Of a DNA stretch of 55,227 nt, positions 36,206-52,456 are shown piece after piece. Each line of letters starts with the position of its first letter. Within the stretch, counting starts at the first letter, position 1. The stretch lies in NCBI GenBank assembly GCA_050259135.1, contig JBLNAA010000160.1, positions 1-55,227 on the forward strand, given 5' to 3'. Below the pieces are notes generated by a model. It had not been told where the DNA came from. It ran no database searches and worked only from the letters and a program-made list of their open reading frames with translations. The translations under genes were made by a program, and so were the position numbers. This DNA comes from Methylocystaceae bacterium (GTDB taxonomy: Bacteria; Bacillota; Syntrophomonadia; Syntrophomonadales; JBLNAA01).

Positions 36206-36958
36206 CTAGTTGATCTTGACCATAGCACCTTTGATATTCACCATGCCCCCAGCCTTAACATCCAAGGTGGCATTGGCATTCAGCTTTAAAGCCGTAGTTG
36301 CCTGAATATCAATCTGGTTGGCTGATATCTTTAGATTGCCGGCAGGTGCATTGATCGATATATTACTGCCATTTATCTCAATAACGCAGGAATTCACTTT
36401 AAGCGTTACCTTGCTGCCAGCCTTTAATTCAATACTGTTAGCCCCATTATCGATGGTTAACGTATTTTGGGCATTGTCGTCCTTAACTTCAATCTTTTTA
36501 TTAGCATCATCCAATACCAGCTTCTTACCTTTGGGAGTATGAAGTTCGATACTTTCTTTACCCTGGGTGTCATTCAAGATCACTTCATGTCCTATTCGGG
36601 TCTTAAATTTACGGATGTTTACTTTACCGTCAGCAATGGCATTGGCCTCCGGAATCTTATCCTTACCATTCCACAAGGCTCCAATAACGATAGGCTCCTC
36701 CACATTACCATGCTGAAAGGCCAGTAATACTTCATCATTAACCTCGGGCAAAAAGAATATCCCCCGTTCGGGGCCGGCCATGGGGGTAGCAACTCGAATC
36801 CAGTCGCTCTCCTGTGCAGTATCCCACAGCACATACTTCACCTTTATCCGACCCTTTTTATCCGGGTCATTAATATTAGTTACAATTCCTACGGTTACGC
36901 CGGTAACTTTAGCACTATTAAGATCGCTGGGGGTTGGCAGTGAATAAACAATATTCAA
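36206..36958 (-). CDS. Baseplate assembly protein V / VgrG gp5-like spike
   Basis: GIVTNINDPDKKGRIKV, WIRVATPMAG, FLPEVNDEVL, VIGALWN, then beta-helix repeats ending GAMVKIN. Confidence 0.9.
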   Translation of the reverse strand: MNIVYSLPTPSDLNSAKVTGVTVGIVTNINDPDKKGRIKVKYVLWDTAQESDWIRVATPMAGPERGIFFLPEVNDEVLLAFQHGNVEEPIVIGALWNGKDKIPEANAIADGKVNIRKFKTRIGHEVILNDTQGKESIELHTPKGKKLVLDDANKKIEVKDDNAQNTLTIDNGANSIELKAGSKVTLKVNSCVIEINGSNISINAPAGNLKISANQIDIQATTALKLNANATLDVKAGGMVNIKGAMVKIN

Positions 36959-38046
36959 ATGGCGTTACCTCCAATCGATATGGTGGTGGTGTACCCGGAT
37001 TCATCAATACAATGTCGGGCCGACAAAACATAATACTGCTGACTGAGCTCTGAGCCCAATCCCGACAATTGTATGAATTTGCCTGCCCTTATCTCGGGCA
37101 TACCAATACAAGTCGCTTCACCGCTAACCAATTTCATGGCACTTCTGTCCTTAATTGCTTTAGCCTCGATCTCCAACTGATTTTGCGTCCGGGCTTCCGA
37201 AAAATAGTTATCTTCCACCTTGCCCAGCAGCTTATTTAACAGGGCAGTCCCGTCATCACCTGAGCCAATCTTACTGATTGATCCAGAAACTCCTAACAGA
37301 GCCGCTTTAGTTTGGGGATCCCAGCTCCTCACCTTCACAGTTCCGGTTTGATCACTGATGTCATCTTCCAGGTACAAACTCAGCAGGGTCTGCCCCCAGA
37401 CCAGGGTAACGGATGACGAGCCCGCACTCGGAGGTTTACGAAAATGTGCTTGATCGCCGCTGACAAAGAACTCATAACCGTTTCTCTCGGCCAGCCAGCG
37501 GAGAAACTGATAATTACTTACCGCCACCTGCTGGAGTGTGGTGTAGACTATGCTGGTGCTGTCCACTTTGGCGGTAAGTCCACCTTCACTTATTAATTGG
37601 GAGGCTACATCACTGTCTTTTACATCCTTGAAAACCCGTGATTTAACCCCTTTCATCAACTTAAACGATTTGTCCATCCCGGAAACCACTACTGTAGTTT
37701 CCTCTTCCGGGGTCAATTCATAGCGTAATGAAGTAATATAACCCTTAAATACCGTTTCGAGAACATCAACATATCCGGGTTTTATCTCTATTTCTTTGCC
37801 GATAGCGATATTAGCCAATTGAAATTGTTTAATTAACGGACTAAACGCATTGACCACCCTGAAGCTGAACGAATCGGCTTTATCTAAACTGTTTTCTATG
37901 GTCAGGTTGTGAATTATTAAATGAGATTCTTTAAGGTCCTGGCCATCAATCAGTATCTGAAAAGCAGGGGCCACGAATTCTTTATACTTGGTGGTCAAAT
38001 CTGAAACTGCATAAGTTCTGTTGTCAAGTATGGTTAAATCGGACAT
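36955..38046 (-). CDS. Phage late control D / VgrG gp27-like hub
   Basis: GYVDVLETVFKGYI, VSGMD, SNYQFLRWLAERNGY, VRSWDP, GMPEIRAG; 4-bp overlap with the spike gene. Confidence 0.87.
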   Translation of the reverse strand: MSDLTILDNRTYAVSDLTTKYKEFVAPAFQILIDGQDLKESHLIIHNLTIENSLDKADSFSFRVVNAFSPLIKQFQLANIAIGKEIEIKPGYVDVLETVFKGYITSLRYELTPEEETTVVVSGMDKSFKLMKGVKSRVFKDVKDSDVASQLISEGGLTAKVDSTSIVYTTLQQVAVSNYQFLRWLAERNGYEFFVSGDQAHFRKPPSAGSSSVTLVWGQTLLSLYLEDDISDQTGTVKVRSWDPQTKAALLGVSGSISKIGSGDDGTALLNKLLGKVEDNYFSEARTQNQLEIEAKAIKDRSAMKLVSGEATCIGMPEIRAGKFIQLSGLGSELSQQYYVLSARHCIDESGYTTTISIGGNAI

Positions 38047-38050
38047 AATT

Positions 38051-38671
38051 CTACTCCAAGGGAGGGATAATTATCTTACTGCCAGCCTGTACCAGCCTGG
38101 GATTGGCGATGCCGTTAGCCCTGGCAATTTCCCTCCATCGTCCCGGATCTTCATACTCTCGCGCCGCTAACATCCAGAGCTGTTCTCCCTGTTTTAAAAC
38201 CTTCTGTTTGGTACGGTCGGATGACTGCCGCGGTGTTTGCTGCAGTTGTTCCTTAACACTCTGCCATTCCCGCATCTGCACATTTAAAACTGCTCTTACC
38301 GGGATTCCGGAATCTAAGAACATAGTAAATCTCTGAGTGATTTTTTCCATAACCCCTCGAAAAACTACTGAACCCCAGATAAATCTGCATATGGGGGGTA
38401 CATGCTTATCGCTGTCAACCTCAAGTAATCCATATACTTTTTTGGTGTAATTTCTCACATCACTCTGTTTTTCAAAAGTATCAAAAAATAATTCCATAGC
38501 CAGAGTATCAGAATCACCGCTGATAAATTGGGGAACCGTTGAGGATAAGCCTGGCATGGTATGAAACGCATATTTATTTTCTTTGGCTATCGTGTATTCG
38601 TTCGGATTAAATAACACTTCGATTGATTCGTTAGTACTTTCCACTAATATGGTGGCTTTCTTAAGCGGCAT
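38051..38671 (-). CDS. CIS tube initiator with C-terminal LysM (Afp7/Pvc7-like)
   Basis: VLFNPNEY, LFFDT, PPICRFIWG, FLDSGIPVRA, LWMLAAREY..PGRWREIARANGI.NP. Confidence 0.88.
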   Translation of the reverse strand: MPLKKATILVESTNESIEVLFNPNEYTIAKENKYAFHTMPGLSSTVPQFISGDSDTLAMELFFDTFEKQSDVRNYTKKVYGLLEVDSDKHVPPICRFIWGSVVFRGVMEKITQRFTMFLDSGIPVRAVLNVQMREWQSVKEQLQQTPRQSSDRTKQKVLKQGEQLWMLAAREYEDPGRWREIARANGIANPRLVQAGSKIIIPPLE

Positions 38672-38699: not shown

Positions 38700-41600
38700 T
38701 TAGAAGCCCCGGCATTGCCGATCTCTTTTCATCCGTTGTTCAATTTCACGGTAAACACGATCAGCAATTTTTCTTATTTCGGTAGAACTAAACTCAACAT
38801 TCCTCGCCTCGGGCAGCTGCATCATATACTCGGTATTTATCACTGGATTTTGCCTGTCCCTGTCATTGGATTTAGCCTCTGCCGGGATTGTCCTTTCCCG
38901 CCGGTAATCAAAGCTAATCCCGGTACCCAGGGTTGAGTATGATAGTGATCTTTTATCAATATCTTTGATACCACGATGTCTTATGATATCTTGATCAGCA
39001 TTTTGGAAAAGCCGACCATGGTTTTGTCTCTCAGTTTGGGAGGTCAATACCCCGTTATGTTTTCTGTTTATCCCGCTCTCTCTATTTGGGCTGGTTCTAA
39101 GGCTTGTCCGGCGTAACACCTTTTCGTTAAACCGATTACCATAAGCACCATGGTCAATCCTCGGGGAAGCCACTATATTGGCGGCTGCTGGACTAACCTG
39201 ACTGCTAAAACCAGCTGGCACATCTGACATTAGCTGCCCGGCCGATAATAATACCCGATCGATACCTGCCCGGATACCCGGAAAAGGTTCATCCTGGTTA
39301 TACTCTGCCGGTGTTTGAGACCTTAATGTAACAGGTTCCTGTATTAACGTAGTTAATATAGGTCTGCCCACACCCAAATTACAGTTGAAATCCCTGATTC
39401 CCCAGCTCCCTGAATGATTTCGCTTCAACTGTCTATGGTTAGCGGAGACCACCATTCCTTTAGGGTTTTTAGTACCTATCATTGTTGTGAGAACCGTTAT
39501 CCCCAAATTAAAGCCCGGGATTGTTTTTGGGTGCAGCAGACGTTTGGTCAGACTGCTGACTTTCCGAACAGGTTCTGCTTGACTTAAAATCAAATTATCT
39601 GCTGAATACTGGATTCCCTTCAGCGTCGATGGGGCTTCCCTCTTACCTGTATCACCAGGCATAGTACGCAATCCTACAGATAAATCCGGCAGCCAACCGG
39701 CAAGCTTCTTACCTGTTCGCTGATCCAGCATAAAGGTTTTCTTGTTGACTATTCCACACAAGTCAGACAGCGGGCGTGTCGGCCACCTGTCAACCGATGG
39801 CCTGGCTGCACTGTATCTGCCCTCAGGCAAATATGGAGAAATACTTTGGCCCTTAGTTTTCTCCTTCCGTCTAATCACCGCTGCGGTAGATTGAGAACCC
39901 GATACAGGCTGCGGGTTTCTTACCGGAACCACCCTCTGATTGAACTGGTTTGGATGATTTCTATTGCGGAAATACCAAACATTGTTAGGCCATTGTACTG
40001 TCAGCCTGGCCGGATTAACACTGGCTGAAGCTCTTGGCGACAGGGTTATACCCGATCTTTGATAAACTCTTGATCCGGGTGCACCCCTTTGATACCAGGA
40101 AGCTCTTGCCCGTTGAACTAATCCCCGTTTCTGAACAGATGCCAGTGGTATATCTATGTTTAGTTTTCGTTTATGTCCTAATTCAGGAGCTAAACTTTGT
40201 TGTTGAATATAACCATCTGACGGTTTTGTTAGATCCTGTTGGGGATAAGCCTTCGCCATCGGTTTATATTCTTGCTGATTATATATTTCTATTTCCGGTT
40301 GTCCTAAGGGCTGGTTTTTTATCCAATAAGGTTTTTTGGCCATCTTTAAATCATAAGGGACTGCTTTGGGTTCTTCGGATATATTTGCTGCGCTAACCGC
40401 CTGTGTATTAGCAAATAAGCCAATTCTTATGAGTTTATGTCTATCAGCTATAGAACCAATAGCTAATGGTATCCATAATGGGTTATGGGATTGGGCTTCA
40501 AATTGGAATACATCAGCAGCAAAAACATTTGACATAAAATTCTTCGGATACTTGGGGGCAGGGTGTATGGTCATATTCTTAACCACTGGCCGGAAAGAAG
40601 GCTGTACATTGATACCCGGCTGTTCAGCACCCTTGAATACTGGTGTACGCCGCTTCTTGGTCAAAACCCCAGCCAGTCCTTGTCCGTGCCACCGGATTCC
40701 AGCTGTAAAATTATATAACCAGGGTGCTGCAGCCGAACCTGAAAGCAAATTTTCTTTTCCCTGACTGGCTGATAGGTTGCCTGATAGTGTATTTCCATTC
40801 CTCCTGATTATTGATTGACGGATCCATTCAGTTGGCACCGTAGCCGCACCCTGATGGTCACCGTTTTTATTACGGTTAAACCCAGTGCCGCCAATTACTG
40901 CTCTTATTTCAGTCGAGGATGGTTGTCGATAGTATAGATTGGCAGGTATTACATCCGCCCCCTGCAATTTACCGGCAAGTAATTGATGAATGCTATCATT
41001 TCGGTCACGGCTGACCGACAACCCGGCAGGGGGTATATGCTTATCCAGTATAGTTACCGAATGCCTGATTATTGATGATGCCTTTCCGGTTATTAATTGT
41101 TCGGCTGCATATATACGGTCAGCTACTGACCACGGCGAAACAGGTTTTCCAGCATTGGCTCCTGGCAGAACATTTCTTAGGATGGTATCAGGCACATTCC
41201 AATTATTGAATTTATAATATTCTGCTACTGCTTGGTTATAATCGGAACTACTACTTTTTTCGGGTGTTATTATACCGGTATCTTTACCGGGTATGGCCAA
41301 TCTTTTCCGTTGTAGGGGAACCGGCTTAATGGTGATACCGTGATTTATCTTATAAGTAAAGGTTGAATCCGGTTTACTGGAATGATACCTTTCCGCGTCC
41401 GTTGCGGCAATTATTCCTGTAGTCTGGGCCCGCCGAGAAATTATCCCCAAAATACCATTACCTGCAGGTGCCAGTCCGTACCCGTTCGGTTCGCGTTGTC
41501 CCGATCTTAGTCCAAAATCTACAGGTATAATGTGGGTTGAATCAGCATCACCTGGTAATTTAACCACTGGTACCTTACGGGTATTTTTCTGCTGTAAGCG

Positions 41601-42128
41601 ATCTAAAATCCACGGTTCTGTAAGCAGGATCATCCTGTTTTCAGGCGGTAAATAAACCTGCTCGGTGGAACGATGCCCAGTGTATAAAAAAGTCTTATTA
41701 CCGGTAACGTTATGGCGTGTGGATTCGTTTAAGTAATATTTGACCGATGAATCTTTGGTATTACTAATTTTGTTTTTCTTATTTGTTGATTGTTGTTCAA
41801 ACAAAAACAGCCGCAGTGCTTTCTCCAATGAGGACGAGAAGAACTGTGCCCCCTGGCTGCCAGTTAAGAATACTGAATGACGAAAAAGCCGCCCCCCGAT
41901 TTTCTGGTGGTCAGCCCCCTTGTTTTCCAGTATCAGTTTAAGGTTAACCATTAGCGAATCAGACGCAGAATATTTATCAGCATTACTTCCCTGCCGCCAG
42001 ATAAAAGAAACCGATCGAAAAGGATATACCCCGGTCTGCAGGTATTTATTCTTGATCCGTTCGGCAAATGTCTGCTTCTGATTGCTATTATTGGTCCTTA
42101 CTATTTTTTGTTTTTGCGGCAACAGCAT
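38700..42128 (-). CDS. Large basic, probably disordered protein; tape-measure-like by position
   Basis: 1142-aa open frame between tube and LysM genes; only recognisable part is the C-terminal helix IRKIADRVYREIEQRMKRDRQCRG. Confidence 0.6.
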   Translation of the reverse strand: MLLPQKQKIVRTNNSNQKQTFAERIKNKYLQTGVYPFRSVSFIWRQGSNADKYSASDSLMVNLKLILENKGADHQKIGGRLFRHSVFLTGSQGAQFFSSSLEKALRLFLFEQQSTNKKNKISNTKDSSVKYYLNESTRHNVTGNKTFLYTGHRSTEQVYLPPENRMILLTEPWILDRLQQKNTRKVPVVKLPGDADSTHIIPVDFGLRSGQREPNGYGLAPAGNGILGIISRRAQTTGIIAATDAERYHSSKPDSTFTYKINHGITIKPVPLQRKRLAIPGKDTGIITPEKSSSSDYNQAVAEYYKFNNWNVPDTILRNVLPGANAGKPVSPWSVADRIYAAEQLITGKASSIIRHSVTILDKHIPPAGLSVSRDRNDSIHQLLAGKLQGADVIPANLYYRQPSSTEIRAVIGGTGFNRNKNGDHQGAATVPTEWIRQSIIRRNGNTLSGNLSASQGKENLLSGSAAAPWLYNFTAGIRWHGQGLAGVLTKKRRTPVFKGAEQPGINVQPSFRPVVKNMTIHPAPKYPKNFMSNVFAADVFQFEAQSHNPLWIPLAIGSIADRHKLIRIGLFANTQAVSAANISEEPKAVPYDLKMAKKPYWIKNQPLGQPEIEIYNQQEYKPMAKAYPQQDLTKPSDGYIQQQSLAPELGHKRKLNIDIPLASVQKRGLVQRARASWYQRGAPGSRVYQRSGITLSPRASASVNPARLTVQWPNNVWYFRNRNHPNQFNQRVVPVRNPQPVSGSQSTAAVIRRKEKTKGQSISPYLPEGRYSAARPSVDRWPTRPLSDLCGIVNKKTFMLDQRTGKKLAGWLPDLSVGLRTMPGDTGKREAPSTLKGIQYSADNLILSQAEPVRKVSSLTKRLLHPKTIPGFNLGITVLTTMIGTKNPKGMVVSANHRQLKRNHSGSWGIRDFNCNLGVGRPILTTLIQEPVTLRSQTPAEYNQDEPFPGIRAGIDRVLLSAGQLMSDVPAGFSSQVSPAAANIVASPRIDHGAYGNRFNEKVLRRTSLRTSPNRESGINRKHNGVLTSQTERQNHGRLFQNADQDIIRHRGIKDIDKRSLSYSTLGTGISFDYRRERTIPAEAKSNDRDRQNPVINTEYMMQLPEARNVEFSSTEIRKIADRVYREIEQRMKRDRQCRGF

Positions 42129-42182: not shown

Positions 42183-42632
42183 TTATGATTTTTTAACCGT
42201 TAATCCCTGATGAACAATTTCCAGGGATTCGATGGCCACCTCAATGGCATCGGCTTTTAGCTGTGGCCCCACCCATTTAACCGGATAAGACTGCAAAAAA
42301 TTCCAGCGGTACTTTTCTTTCCCACTGGCATCAAGCAGGATAATGGAACCGTTTTTACGCTGAAACTTACCCTTGATAGTCGCTTCATACCAGTTCCAGA
42401 GCTCAGAACCGTTGGTAAATCCACGTCTTAAAACCAGAGGTGGGTACTTACGTATCGTCACAAAGTGGTGTTCGTAATCATTGACCCCGCCCTCGCGGAT
42501 AACCTGATACTCCGTCTCGGCTTCCAGTCCTGAGACTTCTGAAAAATCCGCAACGAGAAGCCCATCAAGCTCAACCTTAAAGCGAAATGCTACCCCGGGG
42601 TCTTTTCCAGATCTCGACACCTTATTGGTCAC
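42183..42632 (-). CDS. Tail tube protein 2 (T4 gp19-like)
   Basis: DP..AFRFKVELDG, FSEVSGL, IREGGVN, LVLRRG, YPVKWVGP.L, IESLEIVHQG. Confidence 0.92.
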   Translation of the reverse strand: MTNKVSRSGKDPGVAFRFKVELDGLLVADFSEVSGLEAETEYQVIREGGVNDYEHHFVTIRKYPPLVLRRGFTNGSELWNWYEATIKGKFQRKNGSIILLDASGKEKYRWNFLQSYPVKWVGPQLKADAIEVAIESLEIVHQGLTVKKS

Positions 42633-42832
42633 CTCTTGTTAAAAACATCAAACATATTTTCTGGTTCATCATTGAGCTGACGATTAATACGAGAAATCTC
42701 TTCACACCAGCGACGGCGGTCACGGTGCTCCATATTCATAATTTGGTCATGGGGCCAGTGAAAGTAATAAGCTATAAAGGCAACTTCCTGCCAAATACGC
42801 TCTACCGGATAGCGTTTCATTCCACTGGTCAT
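42629..42832 (-). CDS. Small eCIS protein (DUF6760-like); probable frameshift extension of the upstream chaperone
   Basis: EVAFIAYYFHWPHDQIMNMEHRDRRRWCEEISRIN. Confidence 0.82.
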   Translation of the reverse strand: MTSGMKRYPVERIWQEVAFIAYYFHWPHDQIMNMEHRDRRRWCEEISRINRQLNDEPENMFDVFNKR

Positions 42833-43257
42833 CTGATAAAATTTACTTCCGCCTCGAACTCATGCTCACATTTGGGGCAAACCACCCTGATATTGGGGGT
42901 TTCCATCTCATTAATGCGCTGGTAGAAATCCTGTAGATAAGCCATATCGGCGGTAAACAATTTTTCAATGGTTTTAGTATCTATAGCTCTGAGATCACCC
43001 AATTTGGTAACCACCCGCGATAAAACTATAATCGAGAGATAACCCGGATTTTGCTGAACACGGGGATCGCGTAAAGGTAATACTTCATCAGCTGCTGTAG
43101 CCAGACGCATTACCCCTTTACGATGCAGGTTACCCTGTTCGTCGATATAACCTTTGGGTAATTCAAATTCAAATTCAGTTTCAAAGGACACTGTATTATC
43201 CCCCGTTCGGGCCGCCTCTTCAGCGGCTTTTTGATTTACACCTTTTTTGGCTGCCAT
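42829..43257 (-). CDS. Tail assembly chaperone-like protein with C-terminal CxxC
   Basis: TEFEFELPKGYID..G.LHRKGVMRLATAADE, DPRV..NP.Y, LFTADMAYLQDFYQRIN, CPKC. Confidence 0.82.
   Translation of the reverse strand: MAAKKGVNQKAAEEAARTGDNTVSFETEFEFELPKGYIDEQGNLHRKGVMRLATAADEVLPLRDPRVQQNPGYLSIIVLSRVVTKLGDLRAIDTKTIEKLFTADMAYLQDFYQRINEMETPNIRVVCPKCEHEFEAEVNFIR
42838..42844 (-). other. Candidate -1 programmed frameshift site A AAU UUU
   Basis: GTA AAT TTT ATC AGA TGA; the -1 frame reads TAT CAG ATG ACC into the next ORF. Confidence 0.65.
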
Positions 43258-43335: not shown

Positions 43336-43773
43336 CTATTTAGATCTAAGGAAACCTTCATAAGCCAATTCCAGAGTTTCAATCAGAACTGATGATTCAC
43401 TGGCATTGAAATTAGAAGACACGTATTTGCAGGGCCAGGCATCATAGAAAGTCCATACCGCCAATTCAGCCTGCTGATCATCAACCGCCTTTATGGTTAC
43501 ATCCTTGCGTTCAACCGTTCCGGTGTTACCTGGCTCACCCTTAAACCATTCGTAAAGTTCCATATTATCGGTTACACCCTGTTTCAGTGTAACGGTAGGA
43601 TTGTGCAGCAGACCCGGAAGCTTCCAATAACCCGCATTCATGTCGCCGCTGCGGAATTCTATAACATCGTAGGAGGCTTCGATGCCTACAACCTCCGTAA
43701 AATATGCTTCGGTAATTCCATCTATTTCGATAGAAAAGCGATAACTCCTAAAGGGATCAACGCGATCAGCCAT
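43336..43773 (-). CDS. Tail tube protein 1 (T4 gp19-like, major tube)
   Basis: DPFRSYRFSIEIDG, KLPGL, VTLKQG, AWPCKY, IETLELAYEG. Confidence 0.92.
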   Translation of the reverse strand: MADRVDPFRSYRFSIEIDGITEAYFTEVVGIEASYDVIEFRSGDMNAGYWKLPGLLHNPTVTLKQGVTDNMELYEWFKGEPGNTGTVERKDVTIKAVDDQQAELAVWTFYDAWPCKYVSSNFNASESSVLIETLELAYEGFLRSK

Positions 43774-43794: not shown

Positions 43795-45522
43795 CTATTC
43801 GCTATCAGCAGTCTTTTGAGTGATTCTGAAGATGACAAACTCGGCCGGTTTGACGGGGGCAACACCGATAACACATATCAGGCGGCCATTATCAATGTCG
43901 TCCTGGGTCATGGTGGTACGGTCTACCCTGACAAAGAATGCTTCGTCCGGGGTACCGCCCATGAGTGCGCCACCTCTCCAGACACCCAGCAGGAAGCTGT
44001 AGATAGTGCGCTGAACCCTGGCCCATAGTCTCTCATCATTTGGCTCAAACACAACCCAGTTACTGCCGTTCTTAATTGACTGCTCCAGGAAGATGAACAG
44101 CCTTCTCACGTTGATGTACTTCCAAATCGCATTGGAACTGCAAGTCCGGGCACCCCAAACCCTTATTCCCTGACCAGTAAAAGAGCGGATCAAGTTAACA
44201 CCCTTGGGATTTAAGATGTCCTGTTCCCCTTTATTGTACTGGCAATCGAGTCCTACGCATGCCCGAACCACTTCATTGGCTGGTGCTTTAAATACTCCGC
44301 GGGTATTGTCTGAACGTGCATAAATACCAATGATGGAACCGGAAGGCGGAATAAATATATTACGTTTATCCAGGGGATCGAATACCTGCAGCCAGGGATG
44401 ATAGAGGGCTGCATAATCAGAGTCAAATATATTGCGGTGTTTCTGAACATCAGCTACACTTTTTAATTCCCGGGGAATATCAAGAACCGCAAAACGGCTG
44501 GTCAGGTTTTCGCAGTGAGCTACCAGAGCTAACTGGACATTGGGATCGGTCACACCGGGAACCGCCATGATGCTGACCTCATCATTATCGATAAAAGCCT
44601 TGATACCAGTGCGCTTGCCTGGACCGCGATCTTCACCCATAAAGTCAGCGGCGGAAAGAGCGCCCAAAGAACCATCGCTGCCGCCGACAAGGGCCATCCA
44701 GAATTCTTCTTCACCTGCTTTATCACCAGCGATAATATCAAAAGGAACCCCAACTGGTGCAGCCGGATTATGCTCCACTTTGATCAGAGCTGAACGGGTT
44801 AATCTCTTCTCTATATAGTTAGCTGCTGCGGCATTTAATGACAGGTTTTCATAAGTTTCCGAATCACTGCCATAAAACACCTGCATGCTGAATTCTGAGG
44901 TATAAAGCAGTTTGGTGGGAAGCAGTTGCTTATCAACAACATTTCCCTGCAGAGGATCTTCTAACTCAATGACATTATCCTGAGATTTAACCACATGGGT
45001 ATAAGATCTGCTCTTACCATTGTCAAATACGACTACATCACCGACATTAAACCCGGCGCTGTTTTTAACCCGATAAGTTTTCTCTCCAAGCACTTCCAAA
45101 ATTGGAGTTTTGGCTTTGCTGGCGGGAGTAAATAATATCCTGACTTTATCTCCCCACATACCTGGATTGCGGGCCCAAATCCTTAGAATCTGTGCATCCT
45201 GGTTTTCCTCAGTAAAATTACAGGCTGCTTTAGCATCGGGTGGAATGACCCGCATTACATAGCAGCGTGATCCGCCGTTAATAAAGAAATGTTCGACTGC
45301 ATAAGCCAGATAGCGGTAATCAGCAAAAGCATTTTCAGACAAATAACTACCAAAAATTCTTAAGAAATCGCCAAAATTGGTAACCAATTCGGGCAACCCT
45401 TCAACCGGTCCCTTCTCTGCCAGACCGAGGAACCCGGCGGTACTGGTGCTGACGCCCTCCATTGGTTTGCCACCACTTTCAAACTCCTCAACATAAACCC
45501 CTGGTGATAAATACTCCGGCAT
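43795..45522 (-). CDS. Contractile tail sheath protein
   Basis: YLSPGVYVEE, FFINGG, AALYHPW, PPSG, GVFKAPAN, VWGART, YINVRR, VFEPN, APVKPAEFVIFR. Confidence 0.96.
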   Translation of the reverse strand: MPEYLSPGVYVEEFESGGKPMEGVSTSTAGFLGLAEKGPVEGLPELVTNFGDFLRIFGSYLSENAFADYRYLAYAVEHFFINGGSRCYVMRVIPPDAKAACNFTEENQDAQILRIWARNPGMWGDKVRILFTPASKAKTPILEVLGEKTYRVKNSAGFNVGDVVVFDNGKSRSYTHVVKSQDNVIELEDPLQGNVVDKQLLPTKLLYTSEFSMQVFYGSDSETYENLSLNAAAANYIEKRLTRSALIKVEHNPAAPVGVPFDIIAGDKAGEEEFWMALVGGSDGSLGALSAADFMGEDRGPGKRTGIKAFIDNDEVSIMAVPGVTDPNVQLALVAHCENLTSRFAVLDIPRELKSVADVQKHRNIFDSDYAALYHPWLQVFDPLDKRNIFIPPSGSIIGIYARSDNTRGVFKAPANEVVRACVGLDCQYNKGEQDILNPKGVNLIRSFTGQGIRVWGARTCSSNAIWKYINVRRLFIFLEQSIKNGSNWVVFEPNDERLWARVQRTIYSFLLGVWRGGALMGGTPDEAFFVRVDRTTMTQDDIDNGRLICVIGVAPVKPAEFVIFRITQKTADSE

Positions 45523-45596: not shown

Positions 45597-46330
45597 AAAT
45601 TAGAATGACTATACTATCAGTTAAGCTTCTAAATAGCCGTTCTGGTATACGAATCTCATTCACCAAAAACAGAAATCTTAACTGATTTTCTTATTGTAAG
45701 AATCCAGCTTATCACTGCTCTCGGCGAGTATGCAGATAATCAGAGCGGAGTTAACATGTCCTAAAACTGCTGTCAACTCACCTCCTTAAATCTACTTGCT
45801 CCGGTGGTCTGGCAAATTCAGAAGCTTTACTCCCCAGTTACGAAATATATATAAATGTATATTAATAACTCCGGTTAACAATTAGTTAAATTATTAAGTT
45901 AAATGAATGATGAGACATTACTTTAACCAAAAGGTCGTCGATAATCATGTAAAACAGTTTATCGCAAATTATGGCCCTTTCCATAAATCAAGGCCCGCCT
46001 CCATCCATATATATGGAGTATTGATTATTACCGCCCTCTACAGCAGAATATATGCCCGTTACTCATCAATTAATCTTAATACCCTATAATTTTTATAAAT
46101 GGTATTATCTGTACCACTTTTTCTTGTATGTTATCACATATATTGTTAGATTGAATATATTAAAGAATATCTAAATTCGTGTATTTCTATGGAAGATTCT
46201 CCTATAAAGAAATTTACTTCTTTAATTTTGTATTAGAATCAACACAGTAATTCATAAATTGTTATTAATAAATATTCACCTCGGAAGATACAGCCTTAAA
46301 CTGATTATCTTTGCTCTCAAAGGAGTTCAT

Positions 46331-47425
46331 ATGCGTATAAGATGGATAGATATGATTCTGCTGGCTGCACTGGTACTTGTGGTTAACGCTCCGCTGTCAG
46401 GATGCTTAAACCGCGTAAGCAGCAACAGAGATATTAAAGTGATGATTCCTTCAACCTCAATTGTCTTTGCTGATGCCGAGTGGGAAAGCATAAAGATGCA
46501 TAGTCGGATTGCTGGATATATCATTGAGCATGGTTATGGTTATACTCCCAGGTATTTAACTGGAGAAAACCTGCCGCTTTTTAAAGCCCTCAATCAGGGT
46601 GATGTTGATATTATGATGGAAGTCTGGACGCTGGATTACCCAGTATTATGGAAGCAATTATTGAAGGACGGTAAAGTAAAGGCTTTGGCCACTAATTATA
46701 TCGGCACTCAGGGCTGGTACATTCCTGCTTACCTGGCAGAAGGAGATAAAGAACGCGGAATCGAACCGCAGATACCTAATATTAAAAGCGTTTTCGATCT
46801 GCCAGCTTATCAAAAGTATTTCAAATTATCCGCATCCAGCAGCATGGGAATCATTTATAACGCCCCTCGGGGTTGGCCAGCTGAAGAAACTAATAAGAAA
46901 AAGTTTAATAATTATTTTCTCTTTACATCATTTACCCTGCTGCCCGGTGATTCTGAAGCCGCCTTGGCCGCAAGCCTGGATAAGGCTTATGCCCGGGGAA
47001 ATGCCTGGCTTGGTTATGCTCGTGACCCCAGTATGGTAACTGCCGGCCATAAAATGCTGATGCTCCGCGAGGAGCCTTATAATGAAGAAATCTGGAATGC
47101 TGACCGAATGTGCGCCTACCCGGATTGCGACGTGGTTATCGCAGCGAACTCCGGCATGAATAAGAAAGCCCCGGAAGTTTTAGATTTTCTGCAAAATTAC
47201 CAAACGACCCGGAATCAAAATGAGGAAATACTCCTCTGTTTAAATAAAGCCAACGGTAACCGGGAACAAGCTGCCCGTGAATGGTTATTGAAAAACCCCG
47301 ACGTGTGGGGGCAGTGGGTACCTGAAGCTATTGCCAAAAAAGTCTGGGCTGACCTTAACCCGGCACCGGTTAATAAAAAACCTGGTTTATCCCAAAGGCT
47401 GCTTAAACTATTTAAAATCAAATAG
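46331..47425 (+). CDS. Glycine betaine/choline-type substrate-binding lipoprotein (ProX/OpuAC-like), orphan
   Basis: Lipobox LSGC, FADAEWES, IIEHGYGY, GDVDIMMEVW, QGWYIP; ATG 46331 follows AAAGGAG. Confidence 0.85.
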   Translation: MRIRWIDMILLAALVLVVNAPLSGCLNRVSSNRDIKVMIPSTSIVFADAEWESIKMHSRIAGYIIEHGYGYTPRYLTGENLPLFKALNQGDVDIMMEVWTLDYPVLWKQLLKDGKVKALATNYIGTQGWYIPAYLAEGDKERGIEPQIPNIKSVFDLPAYQKYFKLSASSSMGIIYNAPRGWPAEETNKKKFNNYFLFTSFTLLPGDSEAALAASLDKAYARGNAWLGYARDPSMVTAGHKMLMLREEPYNEEIWNADRMCAYPDCDVVIAANSGMNKKAPEVLDFLQNYQTTRNQNEEILLCLNKANGNREQAAREWLLKNPDVWGQWVPEAIAKKVWADLNPAPVNKKPGLSQRLLKLFKIK

Positions 47426-47484: not shown

Positions 47485-49662
47485 TTGGGGGTGATGTTTG
47501 TGTCAGATCGTATTGCAACTCAACAGCAAAGAGAAACCCTGCCATCCAGCAGTAAACAGCAACCGGTCAGCAAGTCCATAATGAAACGAAAAGTTTTATT
47601 TCCGGCTGAAGAACATCAGGCAATGGATCAGGCCAGCTTATATCGTACCATTACCAACCCTTTAGCTGCCGACCCTGCCAATATACAAAGATTGCAGGGC
47701 ATACTGGGGAACCAGACGGTAAGCGGATTAATTCAAGCTAAACTTACCGTAGGCCCGGTTCAGGATCGTTATGAACAGGAAGCTGACCGGGTAGCGGAGC
47801 AAATAGTAAGCCGGCCGCAGTCCTCACAGCCATCCGGGGGATATACATCTGCATCTCAGCCTTTAACTGAAACAGATGGCGGATTTGTTGCTTCACCTGT
47901 CATTGAAAGCCGTCTAACTGCCCGCCAGGGTATGGGACAGCCACTTCCCAGTGCAATACAATCCTTGATGGAATCTCAATTTTCTGCCGACTTAAGTCAG
48001 GTACGTATTCATACTGATTCAGAAGCAGGCCGTATCAACCAGGAATTAGAAGCCGAGGCGTTTACCCATGGTAATGATATATATATGGCTGAGGGACGCT
48101 ATTCCCCCCACTCGTCATCCGGGCAGCGCTTACTGGCCCATGAGCTAACCCATGTCATCCAGCAGGGAGGAACATCCGGACCCCAGACACCGTCAGCCAT
48201 ACAGCGCTGGCCCTGGTCCAAGAAAAAGAAAGAAGAAGCACCTCCTGCCGGAGCGGCAGCAGCCAAGGCTCCGGCCGCACCGCCCAGCCAGATTCCAATT
48301 GGTCTGGGCCAGGCCTCTTACATGAAATGGCTGCAAACCCATCCCGGTTTGTTATCAGATAAAGAAAGAAGCGCGCTGGGAATAAAAATGCCCGCGGCTA
48401 TGCATATGTCTGATCAACAAATGGCGAGCTTTGATCAGCAGCAGCAGAATGCACGCCGCAAAGAGCTAAATGCCTTGGCCCCGGCCGTTGGCCCCGGGGG
48501 TGAACATTCACAGGATGAGGCCGGCGATGTAGCGAGCATGGTGGAAGATCCCCGTTTTAAAGCCCGTTATGAAGTAGACCGCGGTTCTGACCACGGTAAC
48601 TTTTTGGCCCGTAAACTGAAACGGGGAAAAGAGGTAGCCGGTGCTAAATTCAAAGAAATCAAGAGTTATCTGCCTGGACAGCATTCCGTAGTCCCGGGCG
48701 AGGACTTTGCCCAGCAGTCGGAGACCAAAGGCGAAAAGGCCAAACGGATTGCAAAAACAGCTGCTGTCATGGGTGGTAAAAAACTGCTCGGTTCTATACC
48801 CCTGTTAGGTACTGGTATGAATGTCGCGGCTGCGGTCAAAGAAGGGCAGCGCCAAAAGACGGCGGAAAAAGTAAGTGATACGGCTGATCAAAGCCCACAA
48901 GCCGATACCATGAACAGGCCTTTCCTGTCCAGCATGTCGGAGGGGCTGGCTACCGATCATTACAACAAGAAAGCTGACCGGGCTTTTGATGCCGCGGTCG
49001 GTGCCGTTAATGATGCGGTAACTATTACCGGTGCGGTTCTATCAGGCGGCGCCTCACTGGGAGTAACTGAAGGTGCCAATGCCGTGTTCAAGGAAGCGGT
49101 AAAACCTGTCATCAAGGCTGGTATGTACGGCGCCAAAGCCGGTTGGAAACTTGGTAAAACGATTGCCGGTGCCACCATGGATGATCGTCAGTACCGCATG
49201 GAAGCCAGCAGTGCCAGATCCGATCAAGGCAAAGGAAGCGCCGTAGGTAAGCTGGCTGCTGAGGACCCGGATTTTGCCCAGGCCATGCTCAAACATCTGG
49301 CTCCCGGTCAGATGTCGGTCGGGCATGAACTTTATACAAATAATCGAATACAGGAACCCCAGGGTGACCATACCCTAAAACCAAGTGCAGTAGCCAGGTT
49401 AGGCCGCCAGGAGAAGTCCCGGCTGCGGGAAAGAGAACGCATGGGAGCTGATGCCGGTTGGACCCTCGAAGGTGAAAATCAGCAGGCTGAGACCGCTAAA
49501 CGGGCAGCAAAATCTGCAGCTAAAGGGCCAGCAGCGGTGGATCCCAGAATACCGGCGGCTCCTGCACTACCAGCCCGTCCTCCACAGGCTGCCGGTCCCA
49601 AAAGAGAGAACCTGCTCGGCAGACTATTGAAATCAGAAGAAGAACAGTGGTATGAGACCTAG
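47485..49662 (+). CDS. DUF4157 (eCIS core domain) protein with long C-terminal extension; candidate cargo/effector
   Basis: LGNQ, IQAKLTVG..DRYEQEADRVA, GQPLP, VRIHTD, AFTHGNDIY, LLAHELTHVIQQ; start uncertain (47485/47494/47500). Confidence 0.88.
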   Translation: MGVMFVSDRIATQQQRETLPSSSKQQPVSKSIMKRKVLFPAEEHQAMDQASLYRTITNPLAADPANIQRLQGILGNQTVSGLIQAKLTVGPVQDRYEQEADRVAEQIVSRPQSSQPSGGYTSASQPLTETDGGFVASPVIESRLTARQGMGQPLPSAIQSLMESQFSADLSQVRIHTDSEAGRINQELEAEAFTHGNDIYMAEGRYSPHSSSGQRLLAHELTHVIQQGGTSGPQTPSAIQRWPWSKKKKEEAPPAGAAAAKAPAAPPSQIPIGLGQASYMKWLQTHPGLLSDKERSALGIKMPAAMHMSDQQMASFDQQQQNARRKELNALAPAVGPGGEHSQDEAGDVASMVEDPRFKARYEVDRGSDHGNFLARKLKRGKEVAGAKFKEIKSYLPGQHSVVPGEDFAQQSETKGEKAKRIAKTAAVMGGKKLLGSIPLLGTGMNVAAAVKEGQRQKTAEKVSDTADQSPQADTMNRPFLSSMSEGLATDHYNKKADRAFDAAVGAVNDAVTITGAVLSGGASLGVTEGANAVFKEAVKPVIKAGMYGAKAGWKLGKTIAGATMDDRQYRMEASSARSDQGKGSAVGKLAAEDPDFAQAMLKHLAPGQMSVGHELYTNNRIQEPQGDHTLKPSAVARLGRQEKSRLRERERMGADAGWTLEGENQQAETAKRAAKSAAKGPAAVDPRIPAAPALPARPPQAAGPKRENLLGRLLKSEEEQWYET

Positions 49663-49685
49663 AAATTGCAGGCTGGTGATCACCC

Positions 49686-51908
49686 ATGCAAAATAGAATT
49701 GGCTATCATAATGCAAATATAACAATCTACCCGAACAGTTGGGAGCATTTAAGCGATGAATTACAGCTGCTGGACTTACGAATTAAGCTTCGCTTAGAAC
49801 AGCAGCGGCTGCGGCAGAGCCATGACGGCAATAACCAGTTTAAGGGGCTGGTAATTTCGGAACAGGAAGTGGCTGCTCTCCTGTCGGAACAGATTATGGA
49901 CGAGGTGCGTGAACCCGGCATGCAAAACCTGCTGCAAGCTATAGAGAGAATGCAGGAATATTTACATGCCAGAACCCAGCTTAGCTTAAACCACGGTGTT
50001 CATCTTCCGCTCGAATACTTGACCTGGGCCTTCGACCTCAGCCCATTTGAAAAAGAATGTGTCGTGTTAGCTCTAGCCAATGAGATTGAACGTAAGTATG
50101 AGAAGTTGTTTGGCTTCTTACAAGATGATATAAACTGCAAATATCCCACAATTGATCTCGCCCTGCAGTTGCTTTGCCAGGATGAAGAGGAGCGTCAGTC
50201 CGCTTACCGTTCCCTGACTATGAATTCTCCATTGTTTAAGTATCTGATCGAAGTAGATGATTCCGCCCGGGGTCTGCGGCTCGCCCATCCCTTGAAGCTA
50301 AATCGGCGTATAGTAGAACTATTTCGTCAGCGAATCGCTGTCGATCCTGAACTAACCTTCTTTATCGATTTCTACAACCCTTATGATGAGCTGGAACCGC
50401 TGCGCCTCGATCAGGATATTCAGGAACATCTGCGGCTCTGGCTGCAAATGCAGATTGAAGACGAGAATAATACTCGCAAACCGTTAGTGATATTGTCCGG
50501 CCCCACCGGCAGCGGCAAACGGTTTCAGATCAGACACCTGTGCCAATTTTTTGACACCTCACTCTTTGTTATCGACCTGGCTCGTCTGCCAGCCGACGAA
50601 CTGCAATTTGAAAAAATTCTTCATGATGTAGTGCGGGAAGCTTTGTTGTTCAGCGCTCTTCCCTGCTTTCAGGGGTTAGAAAATATCCTGCCTGACAACG
50701 GCACCCTGGAAAATATAAACCCGGAAGAGAAGCGAACCCGTTGGAACCTGCTGCTGCAAGCTCTGGAGGATTTGCCCGGACCGATATTCATGAAAACGGA
50801 AAAGTCCTGGCAGTTGGCTGAAATGGAACGGTTATATACGATTCTGGCAGTTGAGCTTAAGGTACCGAGTGAATTAATCCGCAAAGAGCTGTGGGAAGCA
50901 TTTTCTCAGAGTTATGCTTTTAAACAGCTTCCGAATTGGGGAGAAATAGCCAGCAAGTTTCGTTTTACCCCGGGGCAGGTTAAAAATGCCTTGCTTAAAG
51001 CCCGAGAGGCCTCTTATGGGCGGGGGAATTTGATGGCAATTGAGGACCTGTACCAGGCCTGCTTTAGTCAGGGTCGGCATTATCTGGGCCGGATAGCCAC
51101 CAAAGTTAATCCCCGCTATACCTGGGATGATATTATCCTGCCGCGGGATACGGTGGAAATGCTTAAAAATGCCTGTAACCAGATGAAAAATCGTTATATC
51201 GTCTACGGACAATGGGGGTTTGAACACCGCCTGGCCTATGGCCGAGGTCTCAGCATGTTATTTTCCGGCTTGCCCGGTACCGGTAAAACCATGGCGGCTC
51301 AGGTAATAGCCCATGAGCTTAATCTGGAGTTATACCGGATTGACCTGGCTCAGGTGGTCAGCAAGTATATTGGTGAAACCGAGAAGAACCTGAGCCGTAT
51401 TTTTAAAGAAGCTGAATCCAGCAACTCCATTTTGTTTTTTGATGAAGCCGACGCCTTGTTCGGCAAGCGGTCCGAAGTAAAAGATGCCCACGATCGCTAT
51501 TCCAACATTGAAATAGCCTACTTGCTCCAAAAGATTGAGGAATATGACGGCATCTCCATCCTGGCCACCAATCTGGCGAAGAACCTGGATGATGCCTTTG
51601 TCCGCCGCATTACCTTTATAGTGGAGTTTCCTTTTCCTGATGCAGATTACCGCCAGCGGATATGGCATTCCATGATCCCGCCGCAAACGCCAGTACATGA
51701 GAACGTAGACTTTGGTTTCCTGGCCCGCCGCTTTGAAATTGCCGGCGGCAATATTAAAAATATCGTCCTGGCAGCAGCCTTCCTGGCTGCCCAGAATGAT
51801 GAAGAAGTTACCATGCAGCACTTTTTACGGGCTGTCAAATATGAGTACCAGAAAATAGGTCGGGTTCTGTTGCGCGAAGATCTGGGTGAATACTATGGTG
51901 AAGTATAG
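49686..51908 (+). CDS. eCIS AAA+ ATPase (Afp15/Pvc15-like)
   Basis: Degenerate first module SGPTGSGKR; intact GLPGTGKT, VVSKYIGETEKNL, FFDEADALFGKR, DAHDRY, LATN, AFVRR. Confidence 0.93.
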   Translation: MQNRIGYHNANITIYPNSWEHLSDELQLLDLRIKLRLEQQRLRQSHDGNNQFKGLVISEQEVAALLSEQIMDEVREPGMQNLLQAIERMQEYLHARTQLSLNHGVHLPLEYLTWAFDLSPFEKECVVLALANEIERKYEKLFGFLQDDINCKYPTIDLALQLLCQDEEERQSAYRSLTMNSPLFKYLIEVDDSARGLRLAHPLKLNRRIVELFRQRIAVDPELTFFIDFYNPYDELEPLRLDQDIQEHLRLWLQMQIEDENNTRKPLVILSGPTGSGKRFQIRHLCQFFDTSLFVIDLARLPADELQFEKILHDVVREALLFSALPCFQGLENILPDNGTLENINPEEKRTRWNLLLQALEDLPGPIFMKTEKSWQLAEMERLYTILAVELKVPSELIRKELWEAFSQSYAFKQLPNWGEIASKFRFTPGQVKNALLKAREASYGRGNLMAIEDLYQACFSQGRHYLGRIATKVNPRYTWDDIILPRDTVEMLKNACNQMKNRYIVYGQWGFEHRLAYGRGLSMLFSGLPGTGKTMAAQVIAHELNLELYRIDLAQVVSKYIGETEKNLSRIFKEAESSNSILFFDEADALFGKRSEVKDAHDRYSNIEIAYLLQKIEEYDGISILATNLAKNLDDAFVRRITFIVEFPFPDADYRQRIWHSMIPPQTPVHENVDFGFLARRFEIAGGNIKNIVLAAAFLAAQNDEEVTMQHFLRAVKYEYQKIGRVLLREDLGEYYGEV

Positions 51909-51949
51909 CCGTAAAATGGTCAGGAGATCAGTGACAGGGGGATTTTGAG

Positions 51950-52456
51950 TTGGGTGCTTATACCGCAATTGCCGATGCCGGGGCCACCATCATTGAGATA
52001 CTGCGAGACAGTTTGTGTCCGGAACCAATTGCTTCTCCGGACTTAATCGGCCTGTGCTCACCGGCCGAAACCGGTGATCTCCAGCTGGGATTATATCTGT
52101 ACTCGGTCAAGCAGAACCGCGAGTACCGAATGGATGGTATAGTCTTAACCCTCTACTACCTGTTGACCGCCTACTCCAGTGCCGATATCCAACAGCGGGC
52201 CTATGATGAAGACTATATTCTGGGTGCAGCTATCCAGGCTCTGAATGAGAATGGAACCATAAACAGTGCTTATCTGCAGGGTTCATTGGGGAGCAATGGA
52301 GAGGATATCAGAAACGATCTCTTCTACGTATCACCGGAAGATATTCAAAAGATCTGGATATTCCCAAACATACCTTATCGCACTTCAGTTGCAATCATGG
52401 TCTATCCTATCATTATTGATAATGGTGGTTTTGCCGCGGGTCCCCGGGTACGGTAA
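51950..52456 (+). CDS. DUF4255/Pvc16-like cap (sheath terminator) protein
   Basis: AIADAG.TI...L, LGLYLY, LYYLLTAY, LGAAIQAL, IW.FPNIPYRTSV; TTG follows GGGGG. Confidence 0.78.
   Translation: MGAYTAIADAGATIIEILRDSLCPEPIASPDLIGLCSPAETGDLQLGLYLYSVKQNREYRMDGIVLTLYYLLTAYSSADIQQRAYDEDYILGAAIQALNENGTINSAYLQGSLGSNGEDIRNDLFYVSPEDIQKIWIFPNIPYRTSVAIMVYPIIIDNGGFAAGPRVR

Follow-up and report, generated by a model that had tools for sequence, protein, structure and literature searches.

A probable programmed -1 frameshift between the tail assembly chaperone and DUF6760 in an extracellular contractile injection system gene cluster

A chromosomal extracellular contractile injection system (eCIS), its genes arranged as in the P2 tail operon, lies in the stretch of DNA analysed here, which we call the window: 55,227 nucleotides (nt), positions 1 to 55,227 of the forward strand of contig JBLNAA010000160.1 (assembly GCA_050259135.1, Methylocystaceae bacterium; placed by GTDB in the Bacillota, Syntrophomonadales). 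Our subject is one junction in this cluster, where the gene for a putative tail assembly chaperone (TAC) runs into a small open reading frame (ORF) of the family DUF6760. We consider it probable, at roughly 80%, that a programmed -1 frameshift of the P2 E/E+E' and lambda G/GT type operates in this locus; DUF6760 is most likely the frameshifted tail of the chaperone, with no gene of its own. The features at the junction are the following.

43257-42829, minus strand: tail assembly chaperone, short form (TAC-N, equivalent of 'G' or 'E'), 142 amino acids (aa), from the ORF list and the match to phrog_508
42868-42879, minus strand: CPxC region, chaperone residues 127-130
42852-42855, minus strand: Shine-Dalgarno (SD)-like GAGG, a possible upstream stimulator, its 3' end 7 nt before the heptamer
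42838-42844, minus strand: slippery heptamer A_AAT_TTT, in phase with the chaperone and the proposed site of the -1 shift
42629-42832, minus strand: DUF6760 ORF, 67 aa (PF20546, E 8.3e-18)
42629-42838, minus strand: -1 frame segment after the slip, YQ plus the 67 DUF6760 residues (TAC-C, equivalent of 'T' or E')
join(43257..42838, 42838..42629), minus strand: proposed long product, 209 aa

The chaperone gene ends, on the minus strand, with gag gcg gaa gta aat ttt atc aga TGA, the stop codon occupying 42831-42829. In the heptamer, AAT would stand in the P site and TTT in the A site; two sense codons follow before the stop. The ATG of the DUF6760 ORF (42832-42830) overlaps the chaperone stop as ATGA, which places DUF6760 in the -1 frame, and a -1 slip would give a product of 140 + 2 + 67 = 209 aa that reads ...EAEVNF-YQ-MTSGMKRYP. 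No SD-like motif is found 5-10 nt upstream of this ATG, the nearest G-rich stretch, GGAAG, ending 13 nt upstream. The initial annotation of this DNA had described the heptamer, its phase and its distance of two codons from the stop, and all of these are exact in the sequence, coordinates included. The reading frames give precisely the 209-aa fusion that it had set beside the 142-aa product, the small ORF lacks a strong SD as it had stated, and the GAGG that it had noted ending 7 nt upstream is both present and a conserved feature among relatives.

In-phase heptamers occur at 91/18587 codons in window ORFs of at least 120 aa; because this rate makes an occasional heptamer at a gene end expected, the window heptamer alone is not beyond chance. 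The -1 relation alone is likewise weak evidence, since it follows from any ATGA overlap. The window heptamer is raised above chance because relatives conserve the junction.

We compared the junction across 81 loci, comprising the window and the best 80 of 570 confirmed loci from a scan of one genome per species with an 11-sequence alignment. The 80 belong mostly to Paenibacillaceae and Clostridia, with further loci from Methanosarcinales, Methanoregula, ANME-2 and a Hydrothermarchaeota metagenome-assembled genome. The initial annotation had proposed such a scan of chaperone/DUF6760 junctions for slippery heptamers in the -1 relation, and the pattern it expected was found. DUF6760 lies directly downstream of the chaperone and in the -1 frame in 81/81 loci, and an in-phase X_XXY_YYZ heptamer is present in the overlap in 71/81, as against 7/81 and 1/81 for the other two phases. 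The overlap scanned was the stretch with both frames open, at most 20 codons (1045 codon positions in total); elsewhere in the chaperone genes, heptamers were found at 67/7792 codon positions. Counted by their first heptamer, 32 loci have T_TTT_TTG, 17 have T_TTT_TTA, 14 have A_AAT_TTT and eight have other types, and the types vary between clades. In two loci, L047 and L053, the first heptamer is probably not the working one, and both have a second, better placed heptamer.

Almost all of the junctions (79/81) are distinct strings. When chaperones were clustered at 80% identity, 30/39 clusters had a heptamer in all members, and at 70% identity the figure was 9/15. An alignment of 13 loci of the A_AAT_TTT type contains the block GTAAATTTT in 12 and ATAAATTTT in the remaining one. 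In the closest fetched relative, L001 (77% identical), the gene ends gta aat ttt ccc aga TAA; the window's ATG corresponds to ATA there.

The conserved DUF6760 domain opens with YP, 5-20 nt past the chaperone stop. In 48/81 loci there is no ATG, GTG or TTG between the preceding -1-frame stop and this YP, and in 18 further loci the sole start lies at least 43 nt upstream, inside the CPxC region of the chaperone; a start near the overlap is present in the other 15, the window included. The -1-frame codon over the stop is GTA in 29 loci, ATA in 28, CTA in 10, CTG in four, ATG in four, TTA in three, TTG in two and GTG in one, and is thus a canonical start in 7/81. For neighbouring genes taken as controls a start was available in 79/79 (tube 1), 59/60 (tube 2) and 74/81 (chaperone) cases. 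These counts suggest that, across the family, DUF6760 usually cannot start independently.

Codon usage was compared in an alignment of the 81 chaperone genes by scoring, for each of 120 columns, codon identity among pairs with the same amino acid (mean 0.42). The slip-site Phe (column 140) is encoded by TTT in 70/72 cases and has a codon identity of 0.998, the highest of the 120 columns, and the codon before it scores 0.92. Another conserved Phe (column 134) is split between TTC (26) and TTT (25). The Ser that precedes T_TTT_TTG is encoded by TCT, a codon used for 29/288 Ser elsewhere. Because the last base is fixed by definition within heptamer-bearing loci, it is the column values that provide the fair measure. 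They indicate that selection at the slip site is on the nucleotides, beyond the protein.

An SD-like GGAG, GAGG or AGGA ends 3-14 nt before the heptamer in 40/71 loci, compared with 477/4513 control windows, and it is provided by a Glu codon (column 135) that reads GAG in 43/45 cases. It stands 10 nt from the heptamer in 30 loci and 7 nt from it in three, the latter being the window's type. This resembles dnaX of Escherichia coli, whose SD-like stimulator has a comparable spacing; it differs from dnaX in that no conserved downstream hairpin is found in the eCIS loci and in that the eCIS product is extended, not truncated.

Since DUF6760 resembles P2 E', the nearest of the known systems appears to be P2 E/E+E', with lambda G/GT further away. 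Annotated in the P2 record are E, E+E' ('-1 frameshift; essential tail protein') and the place of the shift; it reads ggT TTT TTG and stands six codons ahead of the E stop, which itself forms a GTGA overlap. Aligned by hhalign, the DUF6760 alignment and P2 E' gave a probability of 58.6% (E 9.5e-5) over a shared FHW...E...W stretch, and the extensions are similar in size, 57 aa in P2 and about 60-69 aa in the eCIS loci. The slip in P2, like the one proposed for the eCIS, falls a few codons short of where the short form stops, and many eCIS relatives share the identical T_TTT_TTG, whereas the window would slip on A_AAT_TTT, one codon earlier. In both systems the upstream gene is called 'phage tail assembly protein' by the NCBI annotation pipeline PGAP. 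The N-terminal eCIS protein, in contrast, is not detectably like gpE, and it bears the CPxC motif.

In lambda, translation from a single start yields a short chaperone, gpG, and, when ribosomes slip to -1 towards the end of the short ORF, a long one, gpGT; both are encoded between the tube and the tape measure. The same short/long logic is proposed here for the eCIS pair. Lambda differs in having a non-contractile tail and the heptamer G_GGA_AAG; the lambda-like G_GGA_AAT or G_GGA_AAC was seen only in two haloarchaeal loci. The analogy with lambda G/GT drawn in the initial annotation therefore holds for the logic of a frameshifted chaperone pair, and P2 E/E+E' takes the place of lambda as the nearest system. 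The lambda-type chaperone frameshift is conserved according to Xu et al., as described in the available portion of PMC10274946. The same portion describes some T4-like phages that have separate genes for the short and long chaperones and no frameshift. The fused long form of the T4 gp51 type has a counterpart in the eCIS family, a natural fusion described below.

The 142-aa protein matches phrog_508 'tail assembly chaperone' (E 2.8e-6), and its homologues are named 'phage tail assembly protein' or 'FluMu gp41' in the source databases; no Pfam family scored above its cut-off, and tblastn against 50,697 phage records gave no match to it. The family is large, with 7709 clusters (90% identity) at E 0.001 or better and 1218 representatives at 50% identity. 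The CPxC motif is found shortly ahead of the slip site, and in it C127, P128 and C130 are invariant or nearly so in 30 aligned homologues. With two Cys, this motif is at most half a zinc ribbon; some members match zinc-ribbon families weakly. The ESM Atlas gave leads, to be taken as leads only, from the 142-aa protein to T4_baseplate/Phage_TAC_7 clusters (score 0.76) and from DUF6760 to Gp51_C clusters of the T4 gp51 type (score 0.90).

One member of the family, the metagenomic representative P0269 (167 aa), is an in-frame fusion of the chaperone N-domain, without its CPxC end, to DUF6760. It was the only true fusion among the 26 long chaperone-family representatives scanned, though a sequencing error may account for it; most of the others were chimeras or carried unrelated extensions. 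A search for long DUF6760-bearing proteins found nothing, which is weak evidence. P0015 is no such fusion, its sequence being a tandem duplication of the chaperone; P0015 and P0122-P0128 (210-417 aa) each have two or three stretches that match the chaperone domain.

Under the proposed frameshift, most ribosomes would stop at the TGA and release the 142-aa chaperone. A minority would slip back by one base on A_AAU_UUU, tRNA-Asn re-pairing from AAU to AAA and tRNA-Phe from UUU to UUU, perhaps aided by the GAGG 7 nt upstream, and reading in the -1 frame would then give the 209-aa protein, with DUF6760 as its C-terminal domain and the counterpart of P2 E' and lambda T. Free DUF6760 may also be made to some extent from the overlap ATG. 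If lambda and P2 are a guide, the two chaperone forms would cooperate and neither would remain in the finished particle: the N-domain would recruit tube subunits, the long form's C-terminal domain would hold a tape-measure-like protein encoded two genes downstream, and the short form would coat that protein during tube polymerisation. Heptamers of the class H_HH.U_UU.Y are among the most efficient in E. coli in the available text of Sharma et al. (PMC4066793), and the window A_AA.U_UU.U falls in this class. The suggestion in the initial annotation that DUF6760 is the 'T' part of an eCIS pair is supported, on comparison, by the frame, the slip site, the lack of start codons and the synonymous constraint.

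Several observations weigh against this interpretation. The 80 loci are the closest relatives of the window, mostly Bacillota, and hence are kin and phylogenetically clumped. The canonical heptamer is missing in 10/81 loci; these ten keep an in-phase T_TTT or G_GGG tetramer at that place, and an X_XXX tetramer is present in 81/81. Unlike most relatives, the window has the overlap ATG and, 12 nt further on, another ATG, which would permit DUF6760 to be initiated independently or by coupling in the window locus; the overlap ATG itself is no argument against slippage, because E of P2 likewise ends in an overlap, GTGA. There is no conserved RNA structure in the 60 nt after the site (mean z -0.66 over 81 loci; z below -2 in 13/81, +0.33 in the window), RNAalifold gave 0 pairs over the 13 A_AAT_TTT loci, and no Rfam family matched. 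On the protein side, the chaperone homologues match Pfam Gp41_Mu in 4/30 cases and Phage_TAC_7 in 1/30 (best E 0.0081 and 0.015), and hhalign of the 142-aa protein gave a probability of 2.2% against Mu gp41, which is weak, and of 0.2% against P2 gpE, where similarity is nil. The profile link between DUF6760 and P2 E' appears weak, as it falls below the curated threshold: PF06528 (Phage_P2_GpE) matches 14/29 DUF6760 sequences with a best E of 0.0072, under the 23-bit cut-off. Finally, the supposed client, a 1142-aa ORF in the tape-measure position, has no tape-measure signature and belongs to no Pfam, PHROG or NCBIfam family.

As a separate observation, five loci of a clostridial subgroup (L068, L072, L073, L075 and L080) show to the eye a GCCGG(A)...(T)CCGGC stretch that may form a hairpin; it begins some 6 nt past the heptamer, a spacing suited to a frameshift stimulator, and is absent from the window.

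For more distant lineages we used fourteen plasmid loci, from Nostoc, Rhodococcus, Streptomyces, Paraburkholderia, Burkholderia, Rhizobium, Halogeometricum, Haloferax, Paenibacillus, Pseudanabaena, Deinococcus and Treponema. DUF6760 was found in 11/14 and in the -1 frame in 11/11; no DUF6760 match followed the chaperone in L088 (Pseudanabaena), L092 (Deinococcus) and L093 (Treponema). The Deinococcus locus has a 61-aa ORF with a 4-nt overlap there, which may be a diverged equivalent of DUF6760. Nine of the 11 junctions read (C/A)(T/C)G GGG GAx NNN stop, with G_GGG 10 nt before the stop, and G_GGA_AAT or G_GGA_AAC is seen in the two haloarchaeal ones. Over the stop, the -1 frame reads ATG in four, GTG in three, ATA in three and CTA in one. 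Junctions of the form G GGG GAR NNN stop, which take the place of a heptamer and in many cases have ATA, ATG or GTG overlapping the stop, are seen in L081-L087, L090, L094, L095, L046, L052, L063, L064, L066, L070 and L074, in Actinomycetota, Pseudomonadota, Cyanobacteria and several archaea.

It is possible, at somewhat less than even odds, that in lineages with CTG GGG GAR NNN stop, though not in the window, the G-run serves as an SD for an AUG, GUG or AUA over the stop, with initiation replacing the frameshift. The spacing of G_GGG and the codons over the stop in the plasmid loci suit this explanation. So does a construct of Sharma et al. (PMC4066793, available text), in which the signal of G_GG.G was ascribed to SD-driven initiation at a -1 AUA 7 nt downstream, and some T4-like phages make both chaperone forms without frameshifting (PMC10274946, available portion). 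G_GGG is, however, also an in-phase P-site slip tetramer, and in L064 and L095 the codon that overlaps the stop is GTA or CTA, with no start elsewhere. For the G_GGG_GAR lineages the evidence is ambiguous, a one-tRNA slip and SD-driven initiation being indistinguishable here.

We regard it as unlikely that DUF6760 is a separate small gene in the window itself, translated by termination-reinitiation coupling at the ATGA, with the heptamer a relic or coincidence and no consequential fusion. The window's two ATGs would allow this, a start lies near the overlap in 15/81 loci, and ATG or GTG stands over the stop in 7/11 DUF6760-bearing plasmid loci. A start over the stop is nevertheless not conserved (7/81), the closest relative has ATA, and the window ATG has no SD at a working distance. 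A separate gene would also leave unexplained the TTT at 70/72 slip-site Phe codons, the GTAAATTTT block and the upstream GAGG, and P2 has GTGA at the same place and yet is annotated with a -1 frameshift.

Public annotation favours a separate gene at first sight: RefSeq gives the small ORF its own coding sequence (CDS) in 9/9 plasmid loci where it is annotated, named 'DUF6760' in seven and 'hypothetical protein' in two. PGAP names the eCIS pair 'phage tail assembly protein' and 'DUF6760 family protein', and slippage is never annotated. This proves nothing, because PGAP also splits P2 E and E' into two CDSs; in E. coli the P2 pair appears as 'phage tail assembly protein' and 'GpE family phage tail protein' in all eight rows listed of 1586 matching records. 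The RefSeq DUF6760 CDS of Nostoc (L081, 2860-3030) has an ATA start, and in Rhodococcus (L082, 2926-3069) the CDS begins downstream of the conserved YP; in both cases the annotation seems to have been made to fit the lack of a start codon.

It is very improbable that DUF6760 is instead a free structural protein of the particle, for example a counterpart of the spike plug Cis6/Afp6, and no chaperone domain. It is small and its gene lies beside the tube genes; Cis6 is the small spike-plug protein of other contractile injection systems (CISs) in the available text of PMC8894136, and a Halogeometricum cluster with a DUF6760 gene is reported in the available text of PMC11566945 to lack a cis6 or cis14 homologue. 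Neither protein of the pair matches a sequence in the PDB, however, and the best hit of DUF6760 by phmmer against all PDB chains, solved CIS plugs included, is unrelated (E 1.3). The weak similarity of DUF6760 to P2 E' and its Atlas lead to T4 Gp51_C point elsewhere, and a plug would leave the missing start codons and the slip site unexplained. Least credible of all is slippage of RNA polymerase on a T-run, giving a fraction of mRNAs with an in-frame fusion: many relatives have runs of six or seven T, but transcriptional slippage requires longer homopolymer runs, the window has AAATTTT with no run longer than four, and the phase bias (71/81 against 7/81 and 1/81) fits tRNA re-pairing, of which phase preference is a property.

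Frameshifting of tail chaperones is known from phages, and for an eCIS we found no prior report. Full-text searches, with subscription papers and supplements outside their reach, found no statement of frameshifted eCIS or CIS chaperone genes or of DUF6760 as a frameshift extension, in keeping with the initial annotation, whose author was aware of no precedent. The terms 'frameshift' and 'tail assembly' are absent from two eCIS censuses (PMC6899500, PMC8213781), and the available text of the Halogeometricum CIS paper (PMC11566945) mentions neither.

The main value of the frameshift reading lies in annotation and engineering. It would assign a role to a domain of unknown function, DUF6760, and would make the stand-alone DUF6760 CDS, sometimes truncated or started at ATA, a mis-annotation in a family of 7709 clusters, so that many annotations would need correcting. 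In an eCIS rebuilt to deliver proteins, optimising the codons would abolish the slip site and the GAGG, and hence the long form of the chaperone. The chaperone frameshift of long-tailed phages would have been retained in domesticated injection systems, archaeal ones included, and the giant downstream ORF is flagged as a likely tape-measure-like client. More tentatively, and rather as a possibility than an expectation, DUF6760 may be the universal TAC-C of a very large bacterial and archaeal CIS superfamily, joined to the N-domain by interchangeable routes: a heptamer frameshift with an SD-like stimulator in Bacillota; a G_GGG_GAR slip or an SD feeding an AUA, AUG or GUG start in Actinomycetota, Pseudomonadota, Cyanobacteria and methanogens; and gene fusion in P0269. 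The client would be the hypervariable giant ORF. If this were true, a stoichiometry set by recoding would be tied to the loading of tape-measure-like cargo such as the Streptomyces Tme effectors.

The genes around the pair are listed below.

43795-45522, minus strand: tail sheath protein (Phage_sheath_1 and Phage_sheath_1C)
43336-43773, minus strand: tail tube protein 1, directly upstream of the chaperone (Phage_T4_gp19, E 1.5e-38)
42183-42632, minus strand: tail tube protein 2 (Cis5-like), directly downstream of DUF6760 (Phage_T4_gp19, E 2.8e-40)
38700-42128, minus strand: 1142-aa ORF in the tape-measure position, between tube 2 and the LysM initiator (no family)
38051-38671, minus strand: CIS_tube and LysM tube initiator (Pfam)
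36955-38046, minus strand: gpD-like baseplate hub (Pfam)
47485-52456, plus strand: divergent eCIS genes, namely eCIS_core (DUF4157), a WHD and AAA ATPase (Pvc15-like) and a Pvc16_N protein

The cluster also contains gpV, gp25, two Baseplate_J and Tail_P2_I genes, and the order is P2-like: sheath, tube, chaperone, DUF6760, tube, long ORF, LysM initiator, gpD hub, gpV, gp25, Baseplate_J and Tail_P2_I. P2 shares the succession of sheath, tube, chaperone, -1 extension, tape-measure position and gpD-like hub; it differs in that the eCIS has a second tube gene between the pair and the long ORF and belongs to a host element with AAA ATPase, Pvc16 and eCIS_core genes and without capsid genes. The presence of those three genes identifies the cluster as an eCIS and not a prophage. 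No head, capsid or packaging genes were found within the window, the remainder of which consists of housekeeping genes.

From the analogy with lambda and P2 we infer that the client of the chaperone pair would be the 1142-aa ORF. This protein is basic and of low complexity. It gave no tblastn match in any of the 95 loci, though those have a long ORF at the same place; its residues 12-68 are weakly like the same-position ORF of L001 (E 7e-4), and the rest is unmatched. It may be a fast-evolving tape-measure-like protein or a cargo. At this position the Streptomyces CIS encodes large 'tape-measure-related effectors', according to the available text of PMC11126660. Between the divergent halves of the eCIS cluster, at 46259-47425 on the plus strand, lies a gene for an OpuAC-type substrate-binding protein.

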